The notes under the pieces were generated by a model. That model searched no databases and was not told the DNA's origin. It saw nothing but the letters and a program-made list of their open reading frames with translations. This document shows positions 559-26,346 of a stretch of 32,000 nt of DNA, piece after piece. This DNA is from Gammaproteobacteria bacterium. GTDB taxonomy: Bacteria; Pseudomonadota; Gammaproteobacteria; G965277405. Location of the stretch: NCBI GenBank assembly GCA_965277405.1, contig OZ255726.1:1129123-1161122 (forward strand). Direction: 5' to 3'. How positions within the stretch are numbered: the stretch's first letter is position 1; every line of letters begins with the position of its first letter. A program made the position numbers and the translations under genes.

Positions 559-652
559 CCGCCCCATGCGCGTGCTTGTTACCGGAGCCAACGGATTTGT
601 CGGCAAGGCGCTTGCCGACGCGACGGCGAGGTTTTGGTCAGAGCTTCCTTAG
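548..652 (+). pseudogene. N-terminal remnant of an NAD-dependent epimerase/dehydratase (SDR)
   Basis: ATG overlaps the wecB stop. Translation MSSNRPMRVLVTGANGFVGKALADATARFWSELP* carries the Rossmann motif VTGANGFVG and then stops after 34 aa. Confidence 0.6.
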
Positions 653-901
653 ATCAACGGCGAAAGCTACAGGCTCAAACACAGCCGTAAAACCGACTAT
701 AACCAGAACAGCTGGACTAACGGCCAGTAGGCGCTTTGGCATGCGTTAGCTATATGGAAAGCACCCACACCAAAGCGTCGCCTAACCTCAAAACTCAGTG
801 GCTCCTTGTTACGCCGCGATCTGGACCTCTTTTAAGCCAAGATTGACAGCTAGGAACAATACGGTAGAATCCTGATAAGCCAATTTAAAAGAGGAGTAAA
901 T

Positions 902-1924: not shown

Positions 1925-2005
1925 GTGTTCAGGTTGTTGTAATGTTACGAACGCGGGGCGTGTTTTACCGATAAATCACGCCTCGGGCTTTGCAGGTTTG
2001 GCGCA

Positions 2006-5375: not shown

Positions 5376-5928
5376 CGGGAGGCTAGCATAGTGAGGTCCT
5401 GTCGATATAGTGCAGCCCTCAAATGTTCTGGCATTGTGGGTTATGCAACACTCAAATCTTCGAGGTGATACCAATGCAGAATTCCGACAGTTGTCTGGCT
5501 TGGAAAAAGATGCAAGACCATCGCATTAACATATTTTTTCATAGAAAATATCTGCATTCCTCATTACTCAGAAAATCATCGTATGCGGAGTATCAGCAGG
5601 TCACAATCTTAGTTTTAGTGATGCTTTGTGAGGAAATTCCCGCTTGTGAACTCGATTGTTTGGCAGACCTCATACATTGGCAAGACCTGCGCCAACACCT
5701 GCGCATTGTGCCTAGAGACAATATCAGTATGGTTACAATATTTATTACCAACATGGTACAACTTAGCGGATGAAGCAGTGAGCCATGCAGTTGCTCGCGC
5801 TTTAGTTTGCATGAAGTTTGGTAATTTTACTCTTGCAGGCAGCTAATGCGACAATGTGTGTCCGCTTGCGGAACAAGGTAAACACATAATCTTTTCAAAG
5901 CCCTCCTTAGCATTTACACTTAGGGAAT

Positions 5929-6573: not shown

Positions 6574-7140
6574 TTAGTAAATTAAATTCGCTCTGCGATT
6601 TAACTTCCACGCACCTTCATTATCAGCACTATCAACTGGTCGTAACTCACCATAACTGATTACATTAATATTTTTTTGCCGTACGCCACGAATACGTAAA
6701 TACCTAGCTACAGCTTCACCGCGACGATTACCTAATGCGTTATTATATTCAATCGTGCCACGATCATCAGCATGACCTTCGATAGTTACTTCTAATTCCG
6801 GCTGTGCAAGCAAACGAGATAAAATCACTTCTGCATGCGCATCTAACGCTTCAAACGCAATTCCCTTGAGTTCATCTTGATCATAGTCAAAGTAATATGT
6901 TTTAACATCTAAAAGTTCAGCCGTTCTTCGTGATTCTTCACTTGCTTCACTTGCTTCACTTGCTTCAGTGGCAGCAGTTGCTTGTTCGGTTGGTGTTTCT
7001 TGCTGTAGTGTGGCTTCTTGCTCTACAGTTTCAGCAACACTACCACTATCTTCGGTGTCACTACTTTTTACTTGATTTTGCGCGCAAGCACTAATTCCAG
7101 CTAAAAACACAAAAAACAAAATGGTTTGCAGTATTTTCAT
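6574..7140 (-). CDS. pal: OmpA/Pal-family peptidoglycan-associated lipoprotein
   Basis: Signal with lipobox-like AGISAC; OmpA-like domain YYFDYDQDEL...EVTIEGHADDRGTIEYNNALGNRRGEAVARYLRIRGV. Confidence 0.8.
   Translation of the reverse strand: MKILQTILFFVFLAGISACAQNQVKSSDTEDSGSVAETVEQEATLQQETPTEQATAATEASEASEASEESRRTAELLDVKTYYFDYDQDELKGIAFEALDAHAEVILSRLLAQPELEVTIEGHADDRGTIEYNNALGNRRGEAVARYLRIRGVRQKNINVISYGELRPVDSADNEGAWKLNRRANLIY
6941..6967. repeat. 9-bp tandem repeat (CTTGCTTCA)x3 in the linker of the Pal-like gene, encoding EASEASEAS
   Basis: Three perfect adjacent copies of CTTGCTTCA, with a degenerate copy GATTCTTCA upstream. Confidence 0.85.
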
Positions 7141-7154
7141 TATATTTTTCCTAG

Positions 7155-7766
7155 TTAATATTTTAATTCAACTCGTCTATTTTGCATCCAAGCAGTTTCG
7201 TCATTCCCTTTGACTGCTGGGACCTCTTCACCATAGCTTACAACACGTACTGCTGTTTTGGGAACACCTCGATGAACTAAATACGTACTTACAGCAGCAG
7301 CCCGTCTTTCTGCTAAGGCAATATTATAGCCTTTAGAGCCACGATCGTCTGTATGTCCTTCAACTATAACAACAAGATTCGGGTTACTCAATAACGCATG
7401 TGTCATATTTTGCACATGAGCATCTAAAGTAGCGAATGCTTGTGGGCGTATTTGACTACTGTTCGTAGTAAATAAGAATACACGCTGTTGTAAGTTTGAG
7501 TCTGAGCCGAGTAATTCTAGGGATTGTGTAATCAAATAATCTGTTGGACGGAGTTCATCATCAAAACCAAACTCAGAACCTTGTGTAATGTCTTGTTCGG
7601 GAAAGTTTTGATCAGAAAAAAAGCTGTTGTTAGTATTGTCATCAACTGGAATAACAACTGCGCAACTCCCAATGGACGTCATCATAACAAAAAAAGCCAG
7701 TCGAATACTGGTGTCAATCATAACTATACTGCCATTGGCTTTGTGAACGAGAATATATTTTAACAA
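7155..7766 (-). CDS. Second OmpA/Pal-family lipoprotein paralogue (real start possibly downstream at MIDTSIRLAFF...)
   Basis: Lipobox-like TSIGSC; OmpA-like domain LVVIVEGHTDDRGSKGYNIALAERRAAAVSTYLVHRGV...NRRVELKY. Confidence 0.78.
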   Translation of the reverse strand: MLKYILVHKANGSIVMIDTSIRLAFFVMMTSIGSCAVVIPVDDNTNNSFFSDQNFPEQDITQGSEFGFDDELRPTDYLITQSLELLGSDSNLQQRVFLFTTNSSQIRPQAFATLDAHVQNMTHALLSNPNLVVIVEGHTDDRGSKGYNIALAERRAAAVSTYLVHRGVPKTAVRVVSYGEEVPAVKGNDETAWMQNRRVELKY

Positions 7767-8238: not shown

Positions 8239-8507
8239 CTTTGATTAAGCCCATGATGGGCGAGACGGAGAAAAAAACGCTGATAAAACTTAAGCGAAGT
8301 GCGCGCTAACGCTTGGTGGGTCTTGCCAAGTGCTGCAACGAGGCAGCGCAGCGTTTTTTCCCGTTGTTGTGTTGAATATACTTTCGGTTTGCGGCAGCGG
8401 CACTTGCTGTGTTGCATCCCATGGCGTATATGCTATGCCATGCGCTTAGCGCCTTGCAATCCTCAGCAAATGCAGGCAAACTCGCGCCATAAGCGAGTTA
8501 ATCAAAG
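8239..8507. repeat. Dispersed TIR element, copy 2 (MITE-like)
   Basis: Begins CTTTGATTAA and ends TTAATCAAAG. Internal inverted repeat GGAGAAAAAAACGCTG ... CAGCGTTTTTTCCC. Shares GTTGTGTTGAATATACTTTCGGTTTG and GCACTTGCTGTGTTGCATCCCATGGCGTATATGCTA with the other copies. Confidence 0.87.
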
Positions 8508-8589
8508 ATTACATAGGGCAGCGGTAATGCCTTGTAATCAACGCCAGTTCGATACAAACTTGGCGTATTTGCAATTATTAATATATTAT

Positions 8590-9576
8590 ATGCAATACCC
8601 TCAAACTAGAATGCGCCGGCTACGCTCTGACGTATGGATACGGAAACTGGTACAACAAACATCGTTAAGCGTGCATGACTTTATCTACCCTGTATTCGTC
8701 CACTATGACCCAAACCATCGTCAGCCGATTGCCGCGCTGCCTGGGATTGAGCGGATGGGTAATACAGTGTTGCTGCGTCATTTGCAGCCATTGGTACGGC
8801 AAGGGTTGCTGGCGATTGCAATATTTCCTGTTATTGATGCTAACAAAAAATCAGCAGATGCTGCTGAGGCTTGGAACCCTAACGGATTGGTGCAACAAGC
8901 AGTCGTTAGTGTTAAAAAGCACTTTCCTCAACTTGGGGTGATTACTGATGTTGCCTTGGATCCGTATACCAGCCACGGTCAAGATGGGCTCATGGATGCG
9001 CATGGATATATCGTCAATGACAGCAGTTGCGATGTGTTAGTGAAACAGGCGTTGTCGCATGCAGATGCAGGTGCTGATATAGTTGCACCGTCTGATATGA
9101 TGGATGGGCGGATTGGGTTAATTCGCACTGCTTTGGAGGAACATGCGTATCCATTAGTTAAAATATTGGCATATAGTGCGAAATATGCATCAGCATATTA
9201 TGGACCGTTTCGCGCAGCGGTTGGTTCAGTACAAAGCCTTGCTGGTGCTAATAAATCAACGTACCAAATGGATATCGCCAACAGTGCCGAAGCGCTAAAG
9301 GAAATTCAATTAGATATCGATGAAGGCGCTGATATTGTTATGGTAAAACCGGCGCTACCGTATCTGGATATCATTCAGTCGGCACATAACATATTTAAAA
9401 CAACACCTGTGTTTGCATATCAAGTGAGTGGTGAGTATGCGCAACTCCAAGCTGCAATAGCCAATGGCTGGCTTGATGATGCGGCTATTGTCGAAGCATG
9501 TATGGCGATAAAGCGTGCGGGGGCGAGTGCAATGTTGAGTTACTTTACTCCGAAAATTTTTTCATTGCTGGCGTGA
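8590..9576 (+). CDS. hemB: Delta-aminolevulinic acid dehydratase (porphobilinogen synthase)
   Basis: MRRLRSDVWIRKLVQQTSLSVHDFIYPVFV..., DVALDPYTSHGQDG, DIVAPSDMMDGRI, KPALPYLDII, YQVSGEYAQLQAA. The longer upstream ORF start (8299) lies inside the repeat element. Confidence 0.95.
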   Translation: MQYPQTRMRRLRSDVWIRKLVQQTSLSVHDFIYPVFVHYDPNHRQPIAALPGIERMGNTVLLRHLQPLVRQGLLAIAIFPVIDANKKSADAAEAWNPNGLVQQAVVSVKKHFPQLGVITDVALDPYTSHGQDGLMDAHGYIVNDSSCDVLVKQALSHADAGADIVAPSDMMDGRIGLIRTALEEHAYPLVKILAYSAKYASAYYGPFRAAVGSVQSLAGANKSTYQMDIANSAEALKEIQLDIDEGADIVMVKPALPYLDIIQSAHNIFKTTPVFAYQVSGEYAQLQAAIANGWLDDAAIVEACMAIKRAGASAMLSYFTPKIFSLLA

Positions 9577-10604
9577 GTAGTTTGCATGCGCTAAATGACG
9601 TTATTATTTCTCAACAGAACACTCTGGCTGTTCCAGCAATAGCAGATGCGCTTGTGGTTGTGAGCCACTTGCAAGATGTCCAACAATTGCCAGCCTTACA
9701 AGAGCGTCTGCAGTTGCCAATACTGCTGCTCGGTAGTGGGAGTAACGTGGTATTACCACAACGGTTGCATCGGCTAGTTGTTAAGTTGGCTGTTGGCAAA
9801 ATGAGTGTTCACGCAGAAGATGATGCGTCGATCATCATTGATGTGGCAGCGGGCTATAACTGGCATCAACTCGTCTACACGGCGACACAACGCGGCTGGT
9901 TTGGTTTAGAGAAGTTAGCGCTTATTCCAGGGACTGTTGGTGCAGCTCCTTTGCAAAATATAGGCGCATATGGCGCATCATTTAGTGATTGTTGTGTGGC
10001 GGTAGAATATTATGATTTGCAGCAGCAAACGTGGTGTTGGCGTGCTAGTGAGCGTTGTGAATTTGGATATAGAACGAGTTGGTTTGCCCACCAACGTCAG
10101 TTGATAGTTACTCAAGTCAGGTTGCGATTAGCTAAATTTGCAGCTGCTATTCAGCCTGAATATCAGCAGTTGCGAGATAGGTGTGGTGACCAGCTTGCGC
10201 CGATGGATGTGTTGCATGCGGTCATTGCCTTGCGTACAAGAAAACTTCATGACCCGCAGCGCACCCCAAATGCTGGGAGTTTTTTTCACAATCCTGTTGT
10301 CGATGTGGCGATTGCAGAGAATATTTGCACTAGGTTTCCACAAATCAAATCACATGTTCGTCAACAACAAGTTGTTATCCCTGCAGCTGCACTTATTGAA
10401 CACGCTGGTCTCAAAGGTTTTTGCGATAGTGTGTACAATGGTGCTGCAGTGTCGGGGCGACACGCGCTGTGTCTTATCAATTGTGGCCATGCAACAGGGA
10501 ATGATTTTTTGCGACTTGCCAAGCACATCCAGCGCACAGTATTGGCGCAATTTGGGGTATTGTTGACGATAGAACCGCAGGTAATTCAGCCCGTCCAACA
10601 ATGA
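9573..10604 (+). CDS. murB: UDP-N-acetylenolpyruvoylglucosamine reductase; GTG start overlapping the hemB stop
   Basis: LLLGSGSNVVLP, GLEKLALIPGTVGAAPLQNIGAYG, GSFFHNPVV motifs of MurB. Confidence 0.92.
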   Translation: MSSLHALNDVIISQQNTLAVPAIADALVVVSHLQDVQQLPALQERLQLPILLLGSGSNVVLPQRLHRLVVKLAVGKMSVHAEDDASIIIDVAAGYNWHQLVYTATQRGWFGLEKLALIPGTVGAAPLQNIGAYGASFSDCCVAVEYYDLQQQTWCWRASERCEFGYRTSWFAHQRQLIVTQVRLRLAKFAAAIQPEYQQLRDRCGDQLAPMDVLHAVIALRTRKLHDPQRTPNAGSFFHNPVVDVAIAENICTRFPQIKSHVRQQQVVIPAAALIEHAGLKGFCDSVYNGAAVSGRHALCLINCGHATGNDFLRLAKHIQRTVLAQFGVLLTIEPQVIQPVQQ

Positions 10605-14736: not shown

Positions 14737-16068
14737 TTATGCTCCTATAGTAAAACCATGAATCAGTATTGAACCTGTATGGATGGAGCTACGAGTGTCG
14801 ATATCATTACCATGTGCTTGGATGCCCGCAAAGATATCAATCAAATTTGCAGCCAAGGTGATCTCTTCGACAGCATGCGTGATTTTCCCTGCGGAAATCC
14901 ATTTGCCACTCGCGCCAAAAGAAATATCACCAGTGAGCGTGTTGGCACCTTGACCCATGATATCCGTACATAAAAAACCTGTGTGACATTGCTCCACGAG
15001 GGCGTCGAAGTTTGTTATGTGGTCACTTTCAATTGAAATAACACCAATATAACCGCCGTTACCAGTTGGTTTGGTGTTGCATTTGCGTGCATACACGATG
15101 TTAAATAAAAACTGTTTGAGGATGCCGTTTTCAATAATAGTTTTGTCTTGCGTGGCGATGCCATCTTGATCGTACCATGCGCTCCCGCTGATGCCACGCT
15201 GGTGGCATTGTTCGTGAACCTGTAGCCATGGTGGAAATATTTGTTTGCCAATTTTATCGATTAAAAAACTAGATTGTTTGAATAGATGTTTGCCATGACA
15301 GGCGCTCAGTAGTTGCCGCCAAACCATCTGTGCTACATCAGCATGCAGCAGCACAGGGTATGTGCCAGATGTTATTGTATGCGGTTGCAGTTTATCTAGC
15401 GCCTTATGCGCCGCATTGGTTGCGATAGCACTGCTGAATGGCATTTTAGTAACGTCGTGGTGCGTCACATAGTCGTAGGCAATTTGCTTTTTACCCGCGC
15501 TTGCAGCAATAACTGCACAAGAGGCTGAATATTGTGTTTGTTGCGTTTGTTGTGCCCAGCCGTGGCTGTTAAAAATCATTGTGGACTCGTTAGACTGGCT
15601 AAATGTACATTGCTCAACGCTAATACGATTATCGACGTTTGTAGCTGTACGTTCTAGTTGATTGCAGTAATCAATAGCTTGTGATGTAGACAAAGACGCA
15701 GGGTGATACAAGTCAAAGGAATTGTTGTGTATATCACGTTGTTTGGCTAAATACGTAAGTTCAGGTAACGCATAGTGGTGGTCTGCTTGGTTAAGTTCGG
15801 CTTGGCGGATGGTTTGCAGCAACAACGAATGCAGCGTATCAGCATCAATTTGATTGCTGTGTGAAACACTATGTCGACCATCACTAATAACCGTAACCGC
15901 AACAGCATATTCGTCAAAATCTTCCAGCTGTTCCAGTTGCAGATTTCTGGTTTCAATGTTTGTTCCACATTCATGGGAAATCACGATTTGGCATTGAACA
16001 CCATGTTCATTGGCAAGAGCGATAGTTTTCTCTGAGTTACTAATGATAGTTGCAATAGTATGATGCAT
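14737..16068 (-). CDS. pmbA: TldE/PmbA-family metalloprotease component
   Basis: YARKCNTKPTGNGG, GANTLTGDISFGASGKWISAGKITHAVEEITLAANLIDIFAGI...GSILIHGFTI typical of PmbA/TldE C-terminus. Confidence 0.9.
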   Translation of the reverse strand: MHHTIATIISNSEKTIALANEHGVQCQIVISHECGTNIETRNLQLEQLEDFDEYAVAVTVISDGRHSVSHSNQIDADTLHSLLLQTIRQAELNQADHHYALPELTYLAKQRDIHNNSFDLYHPASLSTSQAIDYCNQLERTATNVDNRISVEQCTFSQSNESTMIFNSHGWAQQTQQTQYSASCAVIAASAGKKQIAYDYVTHHDVTKMPFSSAIATNAAHKALDKLQPHTITSGTYPVLLHADVAQMVWRQLLSACHGKHLFKQSSFLIDKIGKQIFPPWLQVHEQCHQRGISGSAWYDQDGIATQDKTIIENGILKQFLFNIVYARKCNTKPTGNGGYIGVISIESDHITNFDALVEQCHTGFLCTDIMGQGANTLTGDISFGASGKWISAGKITHAVEEITLAANLIDIFAGIQAHGNDIDTRSSIHTGSILIHGFTIGA

Positions 16069-16400
16069 GGTGATTTGCGAAGTCTAGTGGGGAAATAAGT
16101 TTGCGGATAAATTGTACTGATTGTAAGGTGAATTCACAAGCAGGTATTGGGCTGCGTTGTTTGCAACTAAACAACCTTCACGTTTACTACTCCTAACAAC
16201 CGCTGTAACCCATTGTAATTTATTTATAAATAGGATATAAAAGAGAGTAAGAGTTGCGCTATGGACGAATTGGCAATTATATGTTACTCAGCAACTGCCA
16301 ATAAATAACATAATAATGTAACTATCGCATTACTAAATATAACAAGACGATAACTATATATACGACCATCGCATTTTAGGACCACTACGAATCTTGTTTC

Positions 16401-17105
16401 ATGCGACTAAACTATAAATTTCAACATGCCGTGCTGCATGGCATAGCTGATAAATTACGTAATGTTCGACTGTTTGCTATAATAAGCGCAGGTTTTTTGG
16501 GATTGGTTTCAGGTTGTTCATTGCTTGGTCTTGCTGATGGTGCGGAAAATACGACGCCTGCTGACTCGTTGGCTCAATTATTAGGTAATCAGCTCGGCCA
16601 ACAAAAAACCAATCAACGGGTTTCAGCTGCTTCTATATATGGTGAGAAAGGCATTATTTTATATGATCCTTTAGGGAATGGTACGGATTTCGTGTTGGAC
16701 CCATCTGGGCGGATTGTGAAATCTGATTTAGACGCGGCAGAAACAGGATTAGAAATTAACGATTTGGAACGACGTTTTTTTCGTTCCAACAAGCATCTGA
16801 TTGATGCCGAAAGTTTATTTTATTCTGGTTTGTACGAAGAAGCACTCAACGAAACAAAAGCATCAATTGAGCTTACTCCGCGTTCAGCAAAAGCTTATGC
16901 AATAAAAGGTTCATTGGAATATAAGCTTGGGCGGCTAGAGCGTGCTAGAGCAGCTTGGATGGTTGCATTAAAGCTTGACCCAAAGATGAAAAGCGTGTCA
17001 CGCGCCCTCTATTTAACTTCTATTCCTGATGCAAATCAAAGAATAGCTGCAACAAGTGGCAGCACGGATAGCGCAGTAGTAGTTGGTGGGGGCACAGAAC
17101 AGTAA
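16401..17105 (+). CDS. TPR-containing lipoprotein, first gene of the motor-like cluster
   Basis: Lipobox-like GLVSGCS; tandem TPR-like segments (LIDAESLFYSGLYEEALNETKASIELTPRSAKAYAIKGSLEYKLGRLERARAAWMVALKLDP). Confidence 0.75.
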   Translation: MRLNYKFQHAVLHGIADKLRNVRLFAIISAGFLGLVSGCSLLGLADGAENTTPADSLAQLLGNQLGQQKTNQRVSAASIYGEKGIILYDPLGNGTDFVLDPSGRIVKSDLDAAETGLEINDLERRFFRSNKHLIDAESLFYSGLYEEALNETKASIELTPRSAKAYAIKGSLEYKLGRLERARAAWMVALKLDPKMKSVSRALYLTSIPDANQRIAATSGSTDSAVVVGGGTEQ

Positions 17106-17195
17106 TAATAATGAAAAATAATATTGCAGAGCATCCGTACATCTTATTCGGAAAGAGTCCGTGAATCTCATGCTTGATCAACTCCGTTTTTTATT

Positions 17196-19208
17196 ATGGG
17201 CTGTAATATAATGCCTCAAAATATACTGGCAATATTCATTGGCGTAGTGGTAATGCTCTCAGGTCAAGCATGGGCTGTAATTATTGATGTGGAAAATCCA
17301 GCTGTTGACGAGGTGTTTTTTGAAAAAGAAATGGAAAGCAGGCTTTCTCGTGATATTCAAGCATATCTTGGACATGATAGGTTTATTTTAGGTATTGATT
17401 TTAAGCTTTCTTCGTTTGCAGGCTTCGGGAGGCAAGGTAGCGATGCTGGTGATAGCGATGCTGGTGATAGAGTGGTTGTTCGTGAAATAACAACGTCATT
17501 GCCTGGTTTACCTGGTGCAGAAGTAAAATTTCAAAAAGAATTAACGGGTGAAGATATTAATAATTTGCGGGAAAATCTGCGCTTAGATGAAAGCTCGCTG
17601 GGGTCTAGAAGTCCGCTAAGCTCTGTGCTACAGCCAAGCACACAAAGTGCTAATGCGCTTGCAGGAACTGGAACTGAAGTGTTTCTTGTGTTAGATACTA
17701 CGGTGACAACGGCGCAGGAAAACTTTATCCGCGATGTAATGTCTAGAAAGTTGAGTATAGATCTAAACAAAGGTGATAGTATTCAAATCGTTCGATCTAC
17801 TTTTGAACGTGAAAGTAATAGTTCAAATACGAGCAATCAACAGCCTAATCAATTTGGAGAAAATCCTGCGCAGCAACCGCCATTATCTGGAAATCAAGTC
17901 CCCGTTGCAGGTGCAGGCGCACCAACTACTGACTCGGGAAATGTAAGTGATTCAGTAACTGATCCAACTTTGTTGCAAAAAATCAATGAACTTGAACAGG
18001 GGTTGAAGAAAGATTTTATTGAGAAAAATTTAGTTTGGATTTTACTCGGTGGCTTTGGTTTTTTATTGTTTTTTAGTCTGATATTGTTTTTGGCATCACG
18101 CAAACCGGCGCAATCAATGATGCCAGCGTATCCGCCGATGGCGCCGCCGCAAAGTCCTAGAACAGGCGCTAGTAATGCCGAAAAAAATAATGTTGATCAA
18201 ATTGAGATTGAGGGAATGCGTCATCGTGCGGTAGTGGCAGAAACTAAACGTGAGATTGCAGCGATAGGTTTAGCATCGCCCAATATTGTAAAACAAGAAA
18301 TGAACAATCTGTGGGCACAAAACCGCATGGATACGATTGCTGCTGTATATACTGGTCTTGGAAATTCAATTTATGAGTCATTGTTTGGTGGACTGTCTGC
18401 ATCTCAATCTTCAGAAATTAGTGCGTATTTATCAGAACGTGAAATCACATCGACACAATTAGAGGCACAAGTTAAAGATTTTTATTCTCGATCATTACGT
18501 GCTGCGAACGACCCTGATGGTAAGCATAAGTCGCATTCATTTGCATTCTTAAATAAAATGAGAATAGGGTCGCTGCAATTCTTGTTAAAAAATGAAAAAC
18601 CACGGGTCAAAGCCTTGGTTATTTCACAGCTTGAAAATGAAAAGGCAACGACTGTATTAAATAGTTTTGAGGATAAAGATCGAAGTAAAGTTGTTCATGA
18701 ATTAGCTCAATTTGAAGACTTTCCGTATGAGACATTTAATGAAGTTGCGCAATTATTGGTTAGAAAAGCTAAAAAAATTCCTGCTGTTAATAATGTTGGG
18801 GCAAATGGTATAAATATTTTAATTAATTTATTGGATAATATGGATAGCAGTGATGAAAGTCGCTTAATTGAAGAATTGCAAAATATGGATCCTGAGTTAC
18901 ACGATAAGCTTAAAACATTGTATTTTACTTTTAATGATCTAAGTAAAGCGCCGCTGCGTGTTATGGGTGAAGCGCTACTAGAAGTTGATAAAAGCACTAT
19001 CGCTATAGCGTTAATGCAAGCATCTGATGTTATTAGAAAACGTGTTTTAAGCAGTATGCCTAAGCGTGTTTCCCAGACTATTGAGGTTGAAATAAAAGAA
19101 ATACAAGACACTATTAAAAACGAACAGATTCAGTCTGCTCGAAAAGTGTTGTTACGCAGTATGCGTGCTTTAGTACGCAATGGTAAAATTGATATGAGTA
19201 AAATCTAA
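17196..19208 (+). CDS. Membrane-anchored FliF(C-terminal)-FliG-like fusion protein (real start possibly 17208)
   Basis: N-terminal signal-like helix. Periplasmic segments resemble FliF C-region (EKEMESRLSRDIQAYLGHDRFILGIDFKLSSF; TTAQENFIRDVMSRKLSIDLNKGDSIQIVRSTFE). TM helix NLVWILLGGFGFLLFFSLILFLA. FliG-like N, middle and C domains (LQFLLKNEKPRVKALVISQLENEKATTVLNSFEDKDRSKVVHEL; INILINLLDNMDSSDESRLIEELQNMDPELHDKLKTLYFTFNDLSKAPLRVMGEALLEVDKSTIAIALMQASDVIRKRVLSSMPKR). Confidence 0.75.
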   Translation: MGCNIMPQNILAIFIGVVVMLSGQAWAVIIDVENPAVDEVFFEKEMESRLSRDIQAYLGHDRFILGIDFKLSSFAGFGRQGSDAGDSDAGDRVVVREITTSLPGLPGAEVKFQKELTGEDINNLRENLRLDESSLGSRSPLSSVLQPSTQSANALAGTGTEVFLVLDTTVTTAQENFIRDVMSRKLSIDLNKGDSIQIVRSTFERESNSSNTSNQQPNQFGENPAQQPPLSGNQVPVAGAGAPTTDSGNVSDSVTDPTLLQKINELEQGLKKDFIEKNLVWILLGGFGFLLFFSLILFLASRKPAQSMMPAYPPMAPPQSPRTGASNAEKNNVDQIEIEGMRHRAVVAETKREIAAIGLASPNIVKQEMNNLWAQNRMDTIAAVYTGLGNSIYESLFGGLSASQSSEISAYLSEREITSTQLEAQVKDFYSRSLRAANDPDGKHKSHSFAFLNKMRIGSLQFLLKNEKPRVKALVISQLENEKATTVLNSFEDKDRSKVVHELAQFEDFPYETFNEVAQLLVRKAKKIPAVNNVGANGINILINLLDNMDSSDESRLIEELQNMDPELHDKLKTLYFTFNDLSKAPLRVMGEALLEVDKSTIAIALMQASDVIRKRVLSSMPKRVSQTIEVEIKEIQDTIKNEQIQSARKVLLRSMRALVRNGKIDMSKI

Positions 19209-19219
19209 GACTATTTTGC

Positions 19220-20011
19220 ATGCCATCCTTCGGAACAATTGGTGGCTTTATAGCAGGGATTGTACTGTTCACAACTGCTGTTAGCCAAGCCACTGATGAT
19301 TATATTATATTCCTAAGCGTCCCCAGCGTACTTTTAGTCGTTGGCGGTACGATTTCCGCAACATTTTTAAGTTTTGAGGTTAGGGATATTTTTAGTGCGT
19401 TTTTTGGTATGTTTTTTTTGTTTTTTAAGAAAAATAATGAGAAAGGTTTTAGAAAAGATATAAAGATGCTATTAGATTTTGCTAAAATACAACGAACAGA
19501 AGGAATGCTGCAAATTGAAATGCAACTTACAAGAACGCAACGTAAAGATGTTTTTATTAGCTTTGCTGTTGATTTACTATTGAGTAATTATCGTCCGGCT
19601 GAGATACGGTCAATGTTAACGGATATGGTATTAGCAAATTTTGATAAAGGTAACCTCAAGGCCTCTGTCATGCGTACAATGGGTGCGTATTCGCCTGCTT
19701 TTGGAATGATAGGTACGTTAATTGGTCTTATTATTATTCTCAGTGGATTCGGTGGAGATATATCACAACTAGGCGCTGGGCTTTCACTGGCGCTTATTTC
19801 CACCTTATATGGCGTTTTATTAGCCAATTTCACGTATTATCCTGCCGCAGAAAAATTCGCTAGAAATACTGATTTGCAACATTTTCGTGAAAAAATTTTA
19901 TTAGAAGGCTTTGTGTTGATTGCTGCAAGAAAAGGAGCGTTGGCTATACAGGATAAATTAAATAGCTTGTTAACGCCTGAATTACGCTACAAAATTAACA
20001 GTAGTCAATAA
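19220..20011 (+). CDS. MotA/PomA-like stator subunit
   Basis: SVPSVLLVVGGTISATFLSF, GNLKASVMRTMGAYSPAFGMIGTLIGLIIILSGF, LGAGLSLALISTLYGVLLANFTYYPAAEKFARN typical of MotA. Confidence 0.88.
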   Translation: MPSFGTIGGFIAGIVLFTTAVSQATDDYIIFLSVPSVLLVVGGTISATFLSFEVRDIFSAFFGMFFLFFKKNNEKGFRKDIKMLLDFAKIQRTEGMLQIEMQLTRTQRKDVFISFAVDLLLSNYRPAEIRSMLTDMVLANFDKGNLKASVMRTMGAYSPAFGMIGTLIGLIIILSGFGGDISQLGAGLSLALISTLYGVLLANFTYYPAAEKFARNTDLQHFREKILLEGFVLIAARKGALAIQDKLNSLLTPELRYKINSSQ

Positions 20012-20014
20012 GTC

Positions 20015-20713
20015 ATGGATGTGTATCCAGAAGGGGGGGTAGCTACAAGACTACAATCAAACAGCAGTGGAAAAGATGCTAGGAGGAATGAGCCTTGGCT
20101 GTTAACGTATTCAGACACGATTACTTTGCTTTTTACTTTTGTGCTGATAATTTTAAAAATTTCTTCTATTGATGTGAATAAGGCAGAAGAATTACGTGAA
20201 GGTTTATCTCAAACATTTTTAAAAAAAGATATTTCAACTGCATTTCAATCATTTTCAAAAGAAATTGAGCAAGTAACAAACATTAATCATGATTTACAGG
20301 TTGATATCACCAGTAGATACGTGACTATAGAGTTGACAAACTCAAGTATATACGATGTTGGTAGCGCTGATATTGTGAATAAAGAGATTAAAACTATACA
20401 GTCAGTAGTTGATATTCTAATACAAGACCCATACGCAAGGTATACATTAGAAGTTGAAGGACATACTGATGATGTTCCAATTAAAAACTTGGAGTTTCAG
20501 TCCAATTGGGAACTTTCAACTGCTCGAGCAACAAACATTGTTAGATATTTAGAAGAAAATGGTGTAAGTAGAGAACGGATGAAAGCAATTGGATACGCAG
20601 ATTCTAAACCATTGCCTGAGACCTTGGATATTAATGGCAATATTGTTCCTGAAAAAAGACCGTTAAATCGTAGAATTTCAATCCGTATTTCACGCTATAA
20701 AATTAATGACTAA
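20015..20713 (+). CDS. MotB-like stator subunit with OmpA-type peptidoglycan-binding domain
   Basis: EPWLLTYSDTITLLFTFVLIIL resembles the MotB TM with the ion-binding Asp (YSD); C-terminal OmpA domain YTLEVEGHTDDVPIKNLEFQSNWELSTARATNIVRYLEENG...KRPLNRRISIRI. Confidence 0.88.
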   Translation: MDVYPEGGVATRLQSNSSGKDARRNEPWLLTYSDTITLLFTFVLIILKISSIDVNKAEELREGLSQTFLKKDISTAFQSFSKEIEQVTNINHDLQVDITSRYVTIELTNSSIYDVGSADIVNKEIKTIQSVVDILIQDPYARYTLEVEGHTDDVPIKNLEFQSNWELSTARATNIVRYLEENGVSRERMKAIGYADSKPLPETLDINGNIVPEKRPLNRRISIRISRYKIND

Positions 20714-21662
20714 AAGAGTTCATCATCAACAAATACAATCACTACTAAACGCTTTACAAAATAATATTGTTGGACAAAAAAAACTATTAGAAAGATTGAT
20801 CATTGGATTATTATCTGATGGACATATATTAGTTGAAGGCGCGCCAGGGTTAGCAAAATCGCTAACTGTTGCAACATTAGCAAAGCTTATAAACTGTGAT
20901 TTTCAGCGTATTCAATTTACTCCAGATTTACTCCCCAGCGATATTACAGGGAGTGAAATCTACAAGCCGCAAACTCAAGCATTTAGCTACCAAAAAGGGC
21001 CAATATTTAGTAATTTAGTGTTAGCTGATGAAATTAATAGAGCACCAGCAAAGGTTCAATCAGCCCTGCTTGAAGCAATGTCTGAACGCCAAGTAACCAT
21101 CGGCAATACAACGTATACGTTACCAGCTTTATTTCAGGTCATGGCAACTCAAAATCCCATTGAACACGAAGGTACGTTCCAACTGCCAGAAGCACAGCTT
21201 GATAGGTTTATTATGTATGTGGCAATTGATTATCCTTCTATAGATGAAGAGTTAATGATTATGCGACTTAATCAAAAAAAGGCGGTTGAGATCACACCAG
21301 TTATTGACATTACAACTATTTTGCAAGCACGTGAGGAAGTCCGTGAGATGTATATTCACGAAAGATTATTAATGTATATTGCAGAAGTTGTCCATGCTAC
21401 GCGTACCCAAAAAAACAGAACAAGTGGCAATCAAGGCTATATAGAAATAGGTGCAGGACCAAGAGCAAGTATTGCGTTAGCAACACTGTCACGTTCTCTT
21501 GCATATCTAAGAGGTCAAGACGAGGTCACTCCAGATATTATCCAAGAGCTGTGTTATGACGTGCTCGCCCATCGAATCATTTTAAATTTTAGCTCAGAAA
21601 ACACAGTTCAACAAAAATACCAAATAATTGACGAGGTACTGAGTAGCGTGAAAATTGTATAG
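20706..21662 (+). CDS. MoxR-family AAA+ ATPase
   Basis: VEGAPGLAKSLT (Walker A), QFTPDLLPSDITG, LADEINRAPAKVQSALLEAMSERQVT, VMATQNPIEHEGTFQLPEAQLDRF. Confidence 0.95.
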   Translation: MTKRVHHQQIQSLLNALQNNIVGQKKLLERLIIGLLSDGHILVEGAPGLAKSLTVATLAKLINCDFQRIQFTPDLLPSDITGSEIYKPQTQAFSYQKGPIFSNLVLADEINRAPAKVQSALLEAMSERQVTIGNTTYTLPALFQVMATQNPIEHEGTFQLPEAQLDRFIMYVAIDYPSIDEELMIMRLNQKKAVEITPVIDITTILQAREEVREMYIHERLLMYIAEVVHATRTQKNRTSGNQGYIEIGAGPRASIALATLSRSLAYLRGQDEVTPDIIQELCYDVLAHRIILNFSSENTVQQKYQIIDEVLSSVKIV

Positions 21663-22460
21663 ATGTTTCAAGTTTTAGAAAAGCTGTCAACAGGGTGGTT
21701 AATAAATTCCGAATATATCCAAGCAGCGTATGCGTATCAGCGCAAGGTCAGTAAAAGTAGGCTACATCATACTTATGGTGCCAGCAGATTAACAAAAAAA
21801 GGAAAAGGTTCTGATTTTGATCATTTAAGGGAGTTCACTAGCAGTGATGATATTCGACATATTGCATGGAAAGCTTCGTTACGATCACAAAAAACATATA
21901 CAAAAGTATTTTCTGATGAGATTGAAGATAAGATAAAAATTTATGTGATGTTGAATGCCGAGTTGTCATTTGCTATAAAAAAAAGATCTGCAGCATTTGC
22001 TTTATATATAGCACTCCACAGCGCTGTAGAAACATGTTATAAAAAAAATATGCAATGTGAAATTTTGCTTATTCATGGCAACAATGTCATCGAGAGAGCC
22101 AAAATACGTATGCAGAAAGAAATTATCAGAACACTTAGTAGCCTTGCTAAGAAAATCAACGCTGCAATGTGTAAGTATAAAACTGGTGATTTATTTAAAA
22201 TGGATGATATAAAGATTACTCCGCATTCAATTGTTCTTACAGGTGCGCGTAATATACAGCATTACGGATTAGATAGCAGCACCCTACTGGGCAGCACACT
22301 ACTGGTAGTAGATGAAGAACCATTGCAACGAATAAGAATTATTGCCCAAACAAATTCTGGTGTGAAACAGGTTAATGTCGGCGCAAATGCCATAGACTGC
22401 GCCATCGTTGCAGATGACACTGTCGAAGATATCTATGCAAAAGTGCAAAGCTGTATATGA
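21663..22460 (+). CDS. DUF58 domain protein
   Basis: GKGSDFDHLREFTSSDDIRHIAWKASLRSQKTYTKVFSDE, the DUF58 signature. Directly abuts the moxR stop codon. Confidence 0.88.
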   Translation: MFQVLEKLSTGWLINSEYIQAAYAYQRKVSKSRLHHTYGASRLTKKGKGSDFDHLREFTSSDDIRHIAWKASLRSQKTYTKVFSDEIEDKIKIYVMLNAELSFAIKKRSAAFALYIALHSAVETCYKKNMQCEILLIHGNNVIERAKIRMQKEIIRTLSSLAKKINAAMCKYKTGDLFKMDDIKITPHSIVLTGARNIQHYGLDSSTLLGSTLLVVDEEPLQRIRIIAQTNSGVKQVNVGANAIDCAIVADDTVEDIYAKVQSCI

Positions 22461-22870
22461 AAGATGTTCATCAACCATATAATTTATATCTTTATTTAAA
22501 TATTACTTGGATTGCTATTGCAATTGTTTTCATGGTATTTCTTATAATAAGTTATATATATTTACAACGATATCTAGCAAATAGAAAAATACAGCAAACT
22601 ATACGTAGGTTGCAAGATATAGAGAGCGATGAGGTTTTTGCATTAAACATTGTGCAAGCCATCAAGCATTCAATGGATGAACATGGGATACAAAGCAATA
22701 TGCTCCATGGCGAACGCTTGTATAAAACCTTGCTTAAACATTACAAATACAAGGCAACCATCACATTAAGAGACTTTTTAATATCAACATACAAAGAACA
22801 AAAAATGATTCAGAGACATTTAGTTCTAAAAGAAATTGAGTTACTAATAAAAAGCAATGTTAGCAATTGA
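22457..22870 (+). CDS. Small single-TM protein (DUF4381-like)
   Basis: ATGA overlap with the DUF58 gene; one N-terminal TM helix then a charged cytoplasmic-type domain; position matches the DUF4381 slot in MoxR/DUF58/VWA operons. Confidence 0.55.
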   Translation: MKDVHQPYNLYLYLNITWIAIAIVFMVFLIISYIYLQRYLANRKIQQTIRRLQDIESDEVFALNIVQAIKHSMDEHGIQSNMLHGERLYKTLLKHYKYKATITLRDFLISTYKEQKMIQRHLVLKEIELLIKSNVSN

Positions 22871-23783
22871 TTGGCCGCTATTTTCTATTGTAGTAATTGG
22901 TTGCTATGTATTGTATAAATACCGAAAAACCATCCGCGTTACTAGCATCTGGTATCCATTTGTAATAGATGAGGCAACTAAAAAATCTCACTATCGTTCG
23001 TCCTTTTTATTTGCAGTGTGCTCTATATTGCTGATTGGCGGAGGTATGCGCCTGCAAAAAATAGATGAAACTGTTAGTATTAAGCAGAATTATAGGGACT
23101 TAATACTAGCAATAGACGCATCAGATAGCATGCGAGTACGCGATATGGAAATAAATAATCAGCTTTTTAGCAGATACGACGCTGTAAAATATTATATGGA
23201 TAAGTTTATCGATAAACGTCAAGGTGATCGATTAGGGTTTGTGATATTCGGATCAAAGGCATATATTCAAGCACCATTAACAGCCGATTTATCGGTGATA
23301 AAAACATACCTAGAAGAGTCATATATAGGCATTGCTGGGCCAAAGACGGCAATTGGTGATGCACTTGCCTTAGCAGTCAAACAAAAAGACAAAGATGACA
23401 CGAATCAAGCAATTATTTTAATAACAGACGGCTCAAATACATCAGGAACAATTGATCCATATCAAGCCGTAGCAATTGCAAAAAAAAAGAAGATTAAAAT
23501 ATATACCATAGCTATTGGCAATAGACGATTTTCACGAGACATAGATTTTAGGTTTCTGCAAACCGCTGCAGCATCAACCAACGGCAAGCATTTCTATGCC
23601 AGTAACGCAAATGAATTGGCATCTATTTATGCGCAACTAGATCGACTAGAACAAAATATCGAACAGTCTTCAACGTTTAGCAAGTATTTTGAGTTGTACT
23701 ATTGGTTTGTATTAGCCTTCATTATTGTGTTTATAGTGGGTTATATGTTTACTCCGTCAAGGCGTGTCAGGAAACATATATAA
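22857..23783 (+). CDS. VWA-domain membrane protein (BatA-like)
   Basis: DLILAIDASDSMRVRD (MIDAS DxSxS), FVIFGSKAYIQAPLTADLSVIKTYLEE, IILITDGSNTSGTIDPYQAVAIAKKKKIKIYTIAIG; N-terminal and C-terminal TM helices. Confidence 0.88.
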   Translation: MLAIDWPLFSIVVIGCYVLYKYRKTIRVTSIWYPFVIDEATKKSHYRSSFLFAVCSILLIGGGMRLQKIDETVSIKQNYRDLILAIDASDSMRVRDMEINNQLFSRYDAVKYYMDKFIDKRQGDRLGFVIFGSKAYIQAPLTADLSVIKTYLEESYIGIAGPKTAIGDALALAVKQKDKDDTNQAIILITDGSNTSGTIDPYQAVAIAKKKKIKIYTIAIGNRRFSRDIDFRFLQTAAASTNGKHFYASNANELASIYAQLDRLEQNIEQSSTFSKYFELYYWFVLAFIIVFIVGYMFTPSRRVRKHI

Positions 23784-23802
23784 AACAACTTTAGGCAATT
23801 TA

Positions 23803-24249
23803 ATGCGAATCATAATGGATAATAATCAATTAAAAATTGCTGGATTTAGTTTGATTGAATTGCTGATTGTAATGGTGATTGTTGCTGTACTCAGTGTTGT
23901 CGCCTTGCCAGTATACCAAACGTATGTAGGGCGAGCAAAGTTTACAGAGGTTATTCAAGCTACCGCACCATATAAAATTGCCGCAGAAATTGCATGGCAA
24001 AATACTGCAACGAGTCTAACTGATCTTGATGCTGGATCCCATGGAATTCCAGATGCAACAGGAAGTAATGACCGCGAAATAAAATCTATCACTATGGTCG
24101 CTGGAGTTATTACCGCAACAGCAAATACTGTCGTAGATGAAAACAACGCAGGAGTAACTTACGTACTTCAGGCCCACGATTTTTCAGGTGGAATCATATG
24201 GAAGGTTGATGCTGCCAACAGTAGCTGTAAAAATCTTGGCTATTGTTGA
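23803..24249 (+). CDS. Type IV prepilin-like protein (ORF track starts at GTG 23764)
   Basis: Class III signal KIAG^FSLIELLIVMVIVAVLSVVALPVYQTYVGRAKFTEV, including Glu at position +5; C-terminal Cys pair SSCKNLGYC. Confidence 0.85.
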   Translation: MRIIMDNNQLKIAGFSLIELLIVMVIVAVLSVVALPVYQTYVGRAKFTEVIQATAPYKIAAEIAWQNTATSLTDLDAGSHGIPDATGSNDREIKSITMVAGVITATANTVVDENNAGVTYVLQAHDFSGGIIWKVDAANSSCKNLGYC

Positions 24250-24408: not shown

Positions 24409-26346
24409 ATGGCAAAAAATGTACTGATATGGATCGGGATTGTTCTTGGACTTGTATTTATATTAAGTCAAGAGATGAGCTTTGAGCCGGAACAAGAAAA
24501 TATTTCATATTCAGATTTCCTCACAAGTGTGCGCAATGGAAAATTATCTCAAGTCACCATAGATGGCTATACTATCTCAGGGCAATATCAAAATGGACAG
24601 GGCTTTGAAACAGTTCGACCAGCTGCGCAAGACCCTAAACTAATTGATGATTTGTACAATAATAAAGTTGAAATCGTAGGTAAGTTACCTGAGCAACCGT
24701 CGTTATGGCGACAATTGCTGGTCGCAAGTTTCCCAATAATATTGATGGTAACAATATTTATGTTAGTAATGCGCCAAATGCAAGGAGGCATGGGCGGGGG
24801 GCGATCTGGTGGACCAATGTCGTTTGGGCGCAGTAAAGCGAAATTACTCAGGTCCGATGAAGTCAAAGTAACATTTGCAGATGTTGCAGGAGTCGATGAG
24901 GCAAAAGAAGAAGTCAGTGAATTGGTTGAGTTTCTAAAAGAACCTGCAAAATTTAAAAATTTAGGTGGCAAAATACCGAAAGGGGTGTTGATGTCTGGTT
25001 TACCAGGAACAGGTAAAACCTTATTAGCGAAAGCCATCGCTGGAGAGGCAGATGTGCCATTCTTTAGCATCTCTGGATCGGATTTCGTAGAAATGTTTGT
25101 AGGTGTTGGCGCCTCAAGGGTGCGCGACATGTTTACCCAAGCTCGAAAACAATCACCATGCATTATTTTTATTGATGAGATTGATGCAGTCGGTCGTCAT
25201 CGAGGTGCAGGTATGGGCGGTGGTCACGATGAACGTGAGCAAACATTGAATCAATTGCTTGTAGAAATGGACGGCTTTGATGGACACGAAGGCGTGATTG
25301 TCATTGCCGCCACAAATAGGCCTGATGTACTTGACCCAGCACTTCTTCGACCAGGTAGATTCGACAGGCAGGTCGTAGTTGGGTTGCCAGACATCCGTGG
25401 GAGAACAGAAATTCTGCAGGTTCATACACGTAAAGTACCGATAGATAAAAATGTTAATGTTGAAGTAATCGCGCGTGCAACACCTGGTTTTTCTGGCGCT
25501 GATTTAGCAAATCTCGTGAATGAAGCTGCATTATTTTCTGCGAAAAAAGGTAGGAGAAAAGTCAGCATGGCTGAGTTTGAACAAGCTAAAGATAAAATTT
25601 TAATGGGTGCCGAACGCCGCTCGATGGTGATGAGTGACGAAGAAAAACGCAATACTGCATACCATGAGTCAGGTCATGCAATCGTTGGGAGACTGGTTCC
25701 AGAACATGATCCTGTGTATAAAGTGACTATTATTCCACGTGGTAGGGCACTTGGGGTAACAATGTTCTTGCCAGAAAAAGATAAATACAGCCATAGTAAA
25801 CGTGCAATTGAGAGTCAGATTGCTAGCTTATTTGGTGGGCGAGTAGCGGAAGAATTGACGTTAGGAAGTGATGGTATAACTACAGGTGCATCGAACGATA
25901 TTGAACGCGCCACCAGTCTGGCAAGGAATATGGTTACAAAATGGGGGTTATCTGAGGCAATTGGACCGTTACATTTTGGTGAAGAGAATGAAAATCCATT
26001 TTTGGGCTATTCAGCAGCAAAACAACAAAGCCCAATTGCTAGTGATACAGCAAATAAAATTGATGCCGAAGTAAAGCGCATCATTCAACAATCACACGTT
26101 CGGGCTAAAAAAATTCTGGTTGACAATCGTGATATTTTAGAACTTATGTCGGATGCGCTGATGGAGTATGAAACGCTTGAGTCGAAGCAGATTGACGATA
26201 TTATGAAGAGGATTAAACCCAAGCCCATAGATGAATATAAAGATGATGATAGCGGTAGCGCATCTTCAACAGTTAATAAGCAGAAAAAACCTAAAGCAAT
26301 GAAAACTGATGACTATAAAGGCACAGGGGACCCATCAGTTGCTTAG
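24409..26346 (+). CDS. ftsH: ATP-dependent zinc metalloprotease FtsH
   Basis: [50 protein letters not shown] region RPGRFDRQV, zinc motif HESGHAIV. Confidence 0.98.

Follow-up and report, generated by a model that had tools for sequence, protein, structure and literature searches.

The 32,000-nucleotide stretch of contig OZ255726.1 analysed here (assembly GCA_965277405.1, Gammaproteobacteria bacterium), referred to below as the window, carries nine intact open reading frames (ORFs) on the + strand, bracketed by pmbA (window positions 14737–16068, − strand; Pfam PmbA_TldD) and ftsH (24409–26346, after the last gene of the set). In order, the nine encode a tetratricopeptide-repeat (TPR) lipoprotein, a FliF-FliG hybrid, MotA- and MotB-type stator subunits, a MoxR-family ATPase, a DUF58-family protein, a small DUF4381-like protein, a BatA-like von Willebrand factor A (VWA) protein and a type IVa pilin-like protein. 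An original prediction, made from the DNA letters alone, had proposed these nine same-strand genes, tightly spaced from MotA to VWA, as specifying a candidate non-flagellar stator-rotor machine. The ORF coordinates match exactly the gene set and junctions that it quoted, and each of its family calls was confirmed by Pfam or NCBIfam. The hybrid and MotA genes are separated by 11 nt and the MotA and MotB genes by 3 nt; the MotB and MoxR genes overlap by 8 nt, the DUF58 and DUF4381 genes by 4 nt and the DUF4381 and VWA genes by 14 nt, and the MoxR and DUF58 genes abut. This arrangement is beyond chance, as the four-gene core recurs in ~55 loci and the nine-gene order once elsewhere. From the homologies described below, we infer that the core, consisting of the TPR, hybrid, MotA and MotB genes, makes up a rotor-stator module that is self-contained and descends from the flagellar motor.

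Central to this reading is the second gene (17196–19208), whose 670-residue product is, as judged from profile alignment, Pfam matches in its relatives and a fold search, a natural FliF(RBM3+TM2)-FliG(N,M,C) fusion and a predicted type I membrane protein, which bears out the earlier call of a FliF-FliG hybrid. Its parts follow one another as a signal peptide, a periplasmic split ring-building motif 3 (RBM3), a Q/P-rich linker, one transmembrane (TM) helix, a conserved linker in the cytoplasm and, last, FliG with its N, M and C domains. The FliG-like cytoplasmic part (18318–19190, residues 375–665) is recognised by Pfam (FliG_M 1.5e-13, FliG_C 2e-19) and by PDB sequence alignments, in which FliG was the only protein matched, over residues 446–667. 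When a 25-sequence full-length profile of the family (A7) was compared with E. coli FliG by hhalign, hybrid residues 375–665 aligned with FliG 2–321 (probability 97.5%, E 8e-12), suggesting that essentially the whole of FliG is attached. We accept FliG_N in the linker with moderate confidence because this broad-profile alignment reaches FliG residue 2; a narrow family profile had shown none. Against the NCBIfam fliG equivalog model, TIGR00207, the hybrid scores 86.8 bits, under the 226.7 cut-off.

The FliF homology of the hybrid surfaced only by profile-profile and fold methods; a PDB sequence search with the N-terminal 440 residues, including one with profile A3, returned no match, even to the engineered fusion 8z4d. 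By hhalign, profile A7 aligned residues 39–302 with E. coli FliF 231–470 (probability 93%, E 3e-7), a span that comprises RBM3 with its insert plus the second TM helix (TM2), and a 29-sequence profile (A6) aligned with FliF 373–440 (probability 84%, E 8e-6). The family alignment contains a conserved periplasmic domain of ~170 residues after the signal peptide, and a FliF-RBM3-like ring-building motif was assigned to residues 39–203 (17310–17804) by AlphaFold2 (AF2), Foldseek, hhalign and Pfam. It has an RBM3-like topology of alpha-beta, a ~90-residue insert made of a beta-hairpin and a helix, and beta-alpha-beta. The insert carries an invariant LPGLP (residues 102–106), and the domain ends in a family-invariant GD....F (G193, D194, F203), which corresponds to RGDSLNVVNSPF in E. 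coli FliF. An AF2 model built from 29 sequences reached a mean predicted local distance difference test score (pLDDT) of 73 overall and >90 in the RBM core, and replaced an earlier model from 9 sequences that had a pLDDT of 50 and no significant Foldseek match. With the newer RBM model, each of the top 15 Foldseek matches in the PDB was a FliF RBM3/collar structure (probability 1.0, E 2e-5 to 1e-4), and S-ring structures from engineered FliF-FliG fusions ranked with the best of them. They were followed by SpoIIIAG, the one other split RBM known, and then by PrgK. The RBM3 of FliF is described as split by an insertion that separates strand 1 from strand 2 (10.1101/023564), and the position of the insert in the hybrid agrees with that description.

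The other ring-building motifs of FliF are missing. No Pfam YscJ_FliF match and no hhalign alignment to FliF 1–230, the region of RBM1 and RBM2, was found in the hybrid, and the mature protein begins ~10 residues ahead of the RBM3-like helix. The N-terminal hydrophobic segment (residues 9–27) ends AWA|V and resembles a cleavable signal peptide. The single TM helix (18024–18101, residues 277–302), identified by hydropathy and followed by RK on the cytoplasmic side, is collinear with FliF 445–475 (TM2) by hhalign. A profile of the periplasmic domain alone, run exhaustively against 1.8 billion representatives, recovered 66 clusters at 50% identity. Within the 49 long clusters, FliG_M was matched in 40, FliG_C in 39 and Pfam YscJ_FliF_C in 16 (best 2e-12), and in one cluster (P0022) YscJ_FliF_C scored above its gathering score. 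The hybrid family is rare but clearly under selection.

In an alignment of 23 non-redundant family members with the E. coli proteins, FliG R281 corresponds to hybrid R624 (R/K in 23/23), D288 to V631 (E/D in 21/23) and D289 to E632 (E/D in 23/23), and the MFXF hinge is represented in 23/23, reading YFTF at residues 576–579 of the hybrid. On the stator side, MotA R90 and E98 correspond to R92 (22/23) and E100 (23/23), MotA P173 and P222 to P159 and P208 (each 23/23), and the MotB channel aspartate D32 to D34 (23/23). The FliM-binding EHPQR motif, in contrast, has been lost; the window protein has E467-K-P-R470 and the family reads E-[KDE]-x-R. The residue aligned with E. coli R160 is E502, a glutamate that is invariant across the family. 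What is conserved is the set of features for ion flow and torque transfer, and what is lost is the feature for the switch complex. The pairing of a FliG-type torque partner with MotA and MotB, which the original prediction had put forward, is upheld at the level of the interface, where the stator residues match those kept in the FliG_C of the hybrid.

The stator subunits are a 263-residue, 4-TM MotA/PomA-type protein (19220–20011; Pfam MotA_ExbB 1e-18) and a 232-residue MotB-type protein (20015–20713) with one TM helix, a plug segment and, for peptidoglycan binding, an OmpA-like domain that carries an NRR motif (Pfam MotB_plug 5e-11, OmpA 2e-15). The best PDB sequence matches of the A subunit are flagellar MotA/PomA structures (8gqy, 8ucs, 6ysf, 6ysl and 8bri; E ~1e-25), and its best NCBIfam models are MotP, MotA and PomA, all scoring under their equivalog cut-offs (128.6 bits against 394 for MotP). 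The B subunit likewise falls closest to MotD, MotB and MotS, at 147 bits against the MotD cut-off of 283. By these scores the cassette stators are of flagellar type, yet form a branch of their own within the flagellar-type group. An energiser of the Exb/Tol/Ton type was ruled out by this affinity, as ExbB was matched at only 1e-4, and so was Zorya anti-phage defence, for PADLOC found no ZorA, ZorC, ZorD or ZorE and only a generic similarity of MotB to ZorB. T166 of the A subunit, which aligns with A180 of E. coli MotA, is threonine in 23/23 family members. A threonine presumably occupies the equivalent channel position in Na+-driven PomA, and the cassette stator might be sodium-coupled.

The first gene (16401–17105) encodes a 234-residue protein with a signal peptide, a lipobox (LVSG|C) with serine at +2, and C-terminal TPRs; it is matched by generic TPR models only (Pfam TPR_2, E 2e-7, and TPR_11). 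The absence of aspartate at +2 suggests an outer-membrane location. The original prediction had included this lipoprotein as a partner of the rotor, and the comparison with relatives supports its inclusion: it is invariant across the family, the lipobox cysteine is kept in 23/23 relatives, the gene lies directly 5′ of the hybrid wherever a locus extends far enough, and in the clade to which the window belongs it is the most conserved cassette protein (73–77% identity over the C-terminal 140 residues). A further connection comes from four lipoproteins of 410–530 residues (P0081, P0082, P0083 and P0056), which combine 2–4 tandem RBM3b-like repeats (…RGD..…V.R..FP) with a C-terminal TPR resembling that of the cassette protein; because both elements are fused in these proteins, the TPR protein is tied to the RBM3 domain. 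They apparently represent a separate, undescribed architecture. In other lineages the cassette has an additional partner of ~370–375 residues, secreted by means of a signal peptide and ending in …GYRF, for which sub-threshold FlgO matches were obtained in 6/7 members. This FlgO-like protein is absent from the window.

Evidence that these genes belong together comes from 58 related loci that we tabulated. The order TPR-hybrid-MotA-MotB recurs in ~55 of them, in several gammaproteobacterial lineages and with unrelated flanks. Had no relative kept the hybrid, MotA/MotB and TPR genes together, the proposal that they form a system would have failed, and the ~55 loci speak in its favour. The window-type group, with hybrids 43–51% identical, includes L001/L002, L024 and L025/L026/L034, and in these loci the four core genes are followed by MoxR and DUF58 genes. 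L025 contains all nine genes in the same order between fusA and guaA. A much larger set of ~45 loci, from genomes and metagenome-assembled genomes (MAGs) of Bermanella and other Oceanospirillales, among them Oceaniserpentilla, Thalassolituus and Saccharospirillaceae, has hybrids 31–34% identical to ours and the order ~375-residue secreted protein, then TPR-hybrid-MotA-MotB, with no MoxR gene. L060, from another clade, has the same five genes and likewise no MoxR, and L029 shows the order Sel1/SPOR-MotA-MotB-372-residue protein-TPR-hybrid, again without MoxR. As a claim about nine genes forming one conserved system, the original prediction therefore does not hold: the conserved unit is TPR-hybrid-MotA-MotB, usually after a FlgO-like protein of ~370 residues.

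Several features of individual relatives deserve mention in their own right. In L029 (12614–19415) the cassette lies directly 5′ of a polysaccharide export locus (Wza/Wzz/Wzy) that encodes a BBP2_2 barrel, a Wza-like Poly_export/SLBB protein, a Wzz/GNVR protein of the tyrosine-kinase type and Wzy_C; a Sel1 protein is encoded ahead of MotA in this locus and beside the hybrid in L030. Between the TPR gene and the hybrid, L030 (8725–9993), like P0069, encodes a 422-residue protein with an RBM3-like N-terminal domain (LGH..F, LPGL), a C-terminal TM helix and no FliG, a FliG-less paralogue of the hybrid that raises the possibility of two rings, concentric or stacked, in some systems. In L033 (12336–13709), from a 2.1-Mb genome, a 771-residue hybrid without a TPR neighbour is followed by a KAP-family P-loop NTPase. 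A 469-residue ankyrin-repeat protein is encoded near the cassette in L001/L002 (5334–6743; 1.8-Mb genome), a hint that the window-type clade includes host-associated bacteria. Finally, a Bermanella-type cassette occurs in a MAG titled ‘Crocinitomicaceae bacterium’ (L012), after a family of the Bacteroidota, with a partner protein 72% identical to that of Bermanella; a binning error is more likely than a real transfer.

Downstream of the core, the window contains genes for a MoxR-family AAA+ ATPase of 318 residues (20706–21662), a DUF58-family protein of 265 residues (21663–22460), a family that usually accompanies MoxR in Bat-like operons, a DUF4381-like protein of 137 residues with a single TM helix at residues 9–41 (22457–22870) and a BatA-like membrane VWA protein of 308 residues (22857–23783). 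The ATPase is a clear family member (Pfam AAA_3 6e-63, with AAA_lid_2) in which the Walker A (GAPGLAKS) and the Walker B (LADEIN) motifs are both intact. The DUF58 protein lies right at the gathering score (3.5e-5) and the DUF4381-like protein just under it (1e-5; 26.2 bits, where the cut-off is 27.2). The VWA protein (Pfam VWA 9e-18; NCBIfam BatA 4e-39, under the cut-off) has TM helices at both ends and an intact metal ion-dependent adhesion site (MIDAS) motif (DASDS), and its orthologue in L025 is 35% identical and equivalently placed. A full Bat operon, of the Bacteroides aerotolerance type, comprises MoxR, DUF58, DUF4381, BatA, BatB, BatC, BatD and BatE genes. Genes 5–8 of the cassette are of the same families in the same order; unlike Bat operons, however, the set stops after BatA and is translationally coupled to motB. 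No further Bat genes (the VWA-TPR gene batB, batC, batD or batE) were found, and pilin and ftsH genes come after BatA; the TPR lipoprotein matches BatC only at E 0.0055, with 16 bits against a cut-off of 175.

The last gene of the set encodes a type IVa pilin-like protein of the PpdD kind (Pfam N_methyl and Pilin; NCBIfam PRK10574 7e-23), with glutamate at +5 and a C-terminal Cys...Cys loop (...SSCKNLGYC). The prepilin call of the original prediction stands as to family, and the start listed for the ORF (GTG 23764, for an ORF of 23764–24249) is probably too early: an ATG at 23815, ~31 nt past the VWA stop, gives a normal prepilin leader (MDNNQLKIAG|FSLIELL) and is most likely the true start, so that the gene would occupy 23815–24249. 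An orthologue in L025 is 48% identical and in the equivalent position. The window contains no pilus assembly genes.

These downstream genes bear on the most serious of the alternative explanations, in which the region consists of two or three independent neighbours, namely a rotor-stator cassette, a truncated Bat-like operon serving an envelope or stress function of its own and an orphan type IV pilin gene; on this view the machine would comprise the first four genes only. We regard this as possible, if clearly the less probable account. It draws on the ~45–50 loci in which the cassette occurs without the MoxR module (the Bermanella type, L029 and L060), on the match of the MoxR-DUF58-DUF4381-VWA order, with its BatA-like VWA protein, to a standard Bat-like operon, on the end of the set after DUF58 in L001/L002 and L024, leaving DUF4381-VWA-pilin attached only in the window and L025, and on divergence, since the DUF58 proteins (25–29% identical to relatives) and VWA proteins fall together in a range of 25–35% identity, as against 44–77% for the core proteins. 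What argues against it is the junction itself. The moxR gene begins inside or at the motB stop in three lineages (overlaps of 8 nt in the window and 1 nt in L001 and L024), the motB-moxR adjacency is kept in every clade member inspected, four lineages in all, despite wholly different flanks, and L025 repeats the order of all nine genes. Between motB and moxR, as everywhere else downstream of the TPR gene, there is no + strand terminator-like site, and the lone such site (16993–17005) falls inside that gene; the sigma-70 and terminator scans of the window returned fewer sites than shuffled sequences did and say nothing about operon limits. In so far as the MoxR-DUF58 pair had been put forward as a general part of the machine, it was found only in the clade of the window itself, and the MoxR module is a clade-specific addition to the cassette. 

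For the core genes, the obvious comparison is with the flagellar motor. The two share an RBM3 with a collar-type insert, TM2, FliG N, M and C, torque charges and an MFXF-type hinge, as well as a flagellar-clade MotA with the equivalents of R90, E98, P173 and P222 and a MotB with channel aspartate, plug and peptidoglycan-binding domain. In contrast to the flagellum, FliF and FliG form one polypeptide in the cassette, RBM1, RBM2 and the EHPQR motif are absent, and the first TM helix of FliF is replaced by what appears to be a cleavable signal peptide. Neither the cassette nor its surroundings encode an export gate, ATPase, rod, hook, filament, FliM or FliN, and apart from the cassette no flagellar gene was found in the 32 kb of the window. 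The dedicated partners of the cassette are the TPR lipoprotein and, in other lineages, also the FlgO-like protein. The cassette is thus a flagellar-type rotor-stator stripped of the remaining apparatus and provided with new partners.

Because every part is of flagellar ancestry, it is also conceivable that the cassette is an accessory of a canonical flagellum, contributing to the normal basal body an additional ring, an alternative rotor or a scaffold that recruits stators, perhaps as a condition-specific second stator-rotor set. The named carriers are mostly Bermanella, Oceaniserpentilla, Thalassolituus and Saccharospirillaceae, which are motile marine bacteria, and the weak FlgO likeness of the ~370-residue partner recalls a flagellar H-ring protein. 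We nevertheless consider this unlikely: in every locus the cassette lies among housekeeping genes and outside flagellar clusters, it supplies its own stators, and without RBM1, RBM2 and the FliM motif it would be unable to replace FliF and FliG in a switchable, exporting basal body. A FliF-type ring could, moreover, hardly be concentric with another membrane-supramembrane ring (MS-ring) in one membrane.

We propose instead that the cassette encodes an ion-driven rotor ring with dedicated stators and an outer-membrane scaffold, to which a MoxR/VWA accessory module has been added in particular lineages, and we judge this to be somewhat more probable than its opposite. By homology to the S-ring of the MS-ring, many copies of the hybrid would form a ring in the inner membrane through the FliF-RBM3-like domain, and, FliG being covalently attached, each copy would contribute one FliG_C torque helix on the cytoplasmic side. 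Units of the MotA5B2 type, anchored to peptidoglycan through MotB, would conduct H+ or Na+ by way of MotB D34 and exert force on the FliG_C helix by means of the conserved charges of MotA (R92/E100) and the hybrid (R624/E632), turning the ring relative to the stators. With the FliM-binding motif gone and neither fliM nor fliN nearby, the device would probably be unidirectional and outside chemotaxis control; without RBM1 and RBM2, the domains that accommodate the type III export gate of a flagellum, the ring should be unable to nucleate a rod, hook or filament. The TPR lipoprotein, joined elsewhere by the FlgO-like protein, would most likely serve as a periplasmic or outer-membrane scaffold or load, in the manner of PflA/PflB or FlgO/FlgP/FlgT. 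The weakest step concerns the MoxR/DUF58/DUF4381/VWA genes, which joined the cassette at its 3′ side with translational coupling and would probably supply an assembly or remodelling factor, a service that MoxR-VWA pairs provide for other complexes. The pilin-like gene may be a lineage-specific passenger or encode a periplasmic fibre component. Candidate outputs of rotation are the energising of an outer-membrane or surface process and surface motility. The further claim that this would be an autonomous, non-flagellar rotary nanomachine, with its own stators, powering an outer-membrane or surface process without type III export or an axial structure, is one that we advance only tentatively, at something short of even confidence.

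The same parts could in principle make up a platform that does not rotate, with the FliG ring docking and unplugging MotAB for a regulated ion leak or for Tol/Ton-like transduction of force on the TPR or outer-membrane partner. A periplasmic face that is perhaps tied to an outer-membrane lipoprotein might hinder rotation, and neither axle nor load is evident. The conserved torque-helix charges and the MFXF-type hinge are, however, precisely the features of torque transfer, and the stator belongs to the flagellar and not to the Exb/Tol clade, so we think such a platform improbable, more so than a flagellar accessory. That the cassette is a functionless, decaying remnant of a lost flagellum, as the small genome (a 2.17-Mb contig) and the host association and gene loss suggested by the ankyrin-repeat proteins of relatives might imply, is scarcely credible given that all ORFs are intact, that the fused architecture and partner set are kept at 28–50% identity across many lineages with invariant functional residues, and that neither the fusion nor the dedicated TPR partner is decay, both being innovations.

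Several observations weigh against the rotary machine proposed above. Ring formation and rotation are deduced from homology only, and no load or output structure is apparent among the products predicted from the cassette. The window hybrid has valine at the site of E. coli D288, with the neighbouring glutamate retained, and the periplasmic insert was modelled at low confidence (pLDDT 45–70). The distant loci L030 and L031 (TPR and hybrid) and L033 (hybrid alone) have no MotAB genes nearby, so that dedicated stators may not be needed by the hybrid in every case. Most carriers lack the MoxR, DUF58, VWA and pilin genes, and ordinary stand-alone Bat-like operons exist elsewhere; the functional link of these genes to the core therefore rests on adjacency in one clade. 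Bermanella is a flagellated genus and many carriers are probably flagellated, so that a role inside or beside a real flagellum may yet apply.

The host is, as judged from its threonyl-tRNA synthetase, a deep-branching gammaproteobacterium without a close sequenced relative: the enzyme is at most ~61% identical to any other, and its matches are scattered across many orders. The remaining genes of the window are ordinary, with a sugar ABC transporter, hemB, murB, argJ, mutS and pmbA ahead of the cluster and ftsH, tRNA-Val and thrS after it. The G+C content of the cassette (16000–24000) is 34–41%, lower than that of the upstream mutS/pmbA region (44–47%) and similar to or slightly below that downstream (38–42%). 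Both this composition and the differing genomic surroundings in relatives would fit lateral movement of the cassette. A σ28 (FliA) promoter-like sequence, TATA-N15-GCCAATAA, occurs at 16278–16304, ~97 nt 5′ of the TPR gene, and was taken as a chance match because no such site precedes the cassette in 22/22 relatives and such matches have a background rate of 0.09 per 350 nt; σ54-like sites were not found. Positions 1–5400 have 52–54% G+C, as against 34–47% across the rest of the window, and contain the end of a UDP-GlcNAc 2-epimerase-like gene and the sugar-type ABC transporter (Peripla_BP_4, two BPD_transp_2 permeases and a double ABC ATPase); this block was possibly acquired horizontally. 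Two adjoining OmpA-family genes at 6574–7766 (− strand; 188 and 203 residues), which surface through similarity to the MotB C-terminal domain, are unrelated to the cassette. The listed GTG start of the hemB ORF (8299–9576) lies ~100 codons ahead of the ALAD domain and is probably too early; the 3′ end of hemB overlaps the murB ORF (9498–10604) by ~80 nt, and the murB start may be too early as well.

To our knowledge, flagellar-clade MotAB stators and FliG have been described only as flagellar parts. The original prediction had stated that no system of this composition was described, and we agree: no published description of the cassette was found in full-text literature searches, which left most subscription journals uncovered. 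A 2025 survey of MotAB diversity places flagellar stators in one clade apart from non-flagellar homologues and does not mention the cassette (PMC12505986). The nearest natural precedent, about half the size of the hybrid, is the shortened FliF-FliG fusion of Chlamydiaceae, which have no flagellum; the fusion was proposed as possibly an ancestral or minimal complex (Bergeron 2015, 10.1101/023564). At ~330 residues, with RBM2, an unassigned RBM and a FliG_M-like region only, it is thought to work with a type III secretion system (10.1101/023564). By this description it lacks RBM3/collar, the FliG_C torque helix and a MotAB partner, whereas the 670-residue hybrid combines RBM3/collar and a full FliG, including FliG_C, with its own stators. 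Engineered full-length FliF-FliG fusions of Salmonella and Vibrio assemble MS-ring-like rings (PMC6079021, PMC10941966, PMC11481574; PDB 8z4d/8z4g). In contrast to the hybrid, these are artificial, contain three RBMs and both TM helices, and are functional only in a complete flagellum.

Other envelope systems offer likenesses of concept. ExbBD-TonB, TolQR-TolA, GldLM, AglRQS and ZorAB also use a MotAB-like unit to energise an envelope process other than swimming. Their A subunits are of the Exb/Tol clade or highly divergent and act on a single elongated partner; unlike these 5:2 motors, the cassette has a flagellar-clade MotA, and its acting partner would be a FliG ring. Campylobacter PflA and PflB are TPR proteins of the periplasmic scaffold in elaborate flagellar motors. 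As with these proteins and the Vibrio FlgO/FlgP/FlgT H-ring, a TPR protein, accompanied in relatives by a FlgO-like protein, is encoded together with stators, and this analogy suggests that the two scaffold the stators or the ring in the space from inner to outer membrane. In contrast to PflA/PflB and the H-ring proteins, the cassette TPR protein is a small lipoprotein, and no sequence membership in those families was detected.

If the rotary reading is correct, torque generation has been separated from flagellar assembly in nature, and a four- or five-protein system would be available for structural and single-molecule studies of rotor-stator coupling. The lineage-specific connection with MoxR and VWA proteins would give a poorly understood chaperone family a concrete candidate client, and a new question would be what load the rotor drives. 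The cassette would also bear on how a flagellar motor could exist, or be reused, without a secretion system, and might either put the flagellar rotor-stator pair to a new use or serve as a living model of the motor at a pre-flagellar stage.

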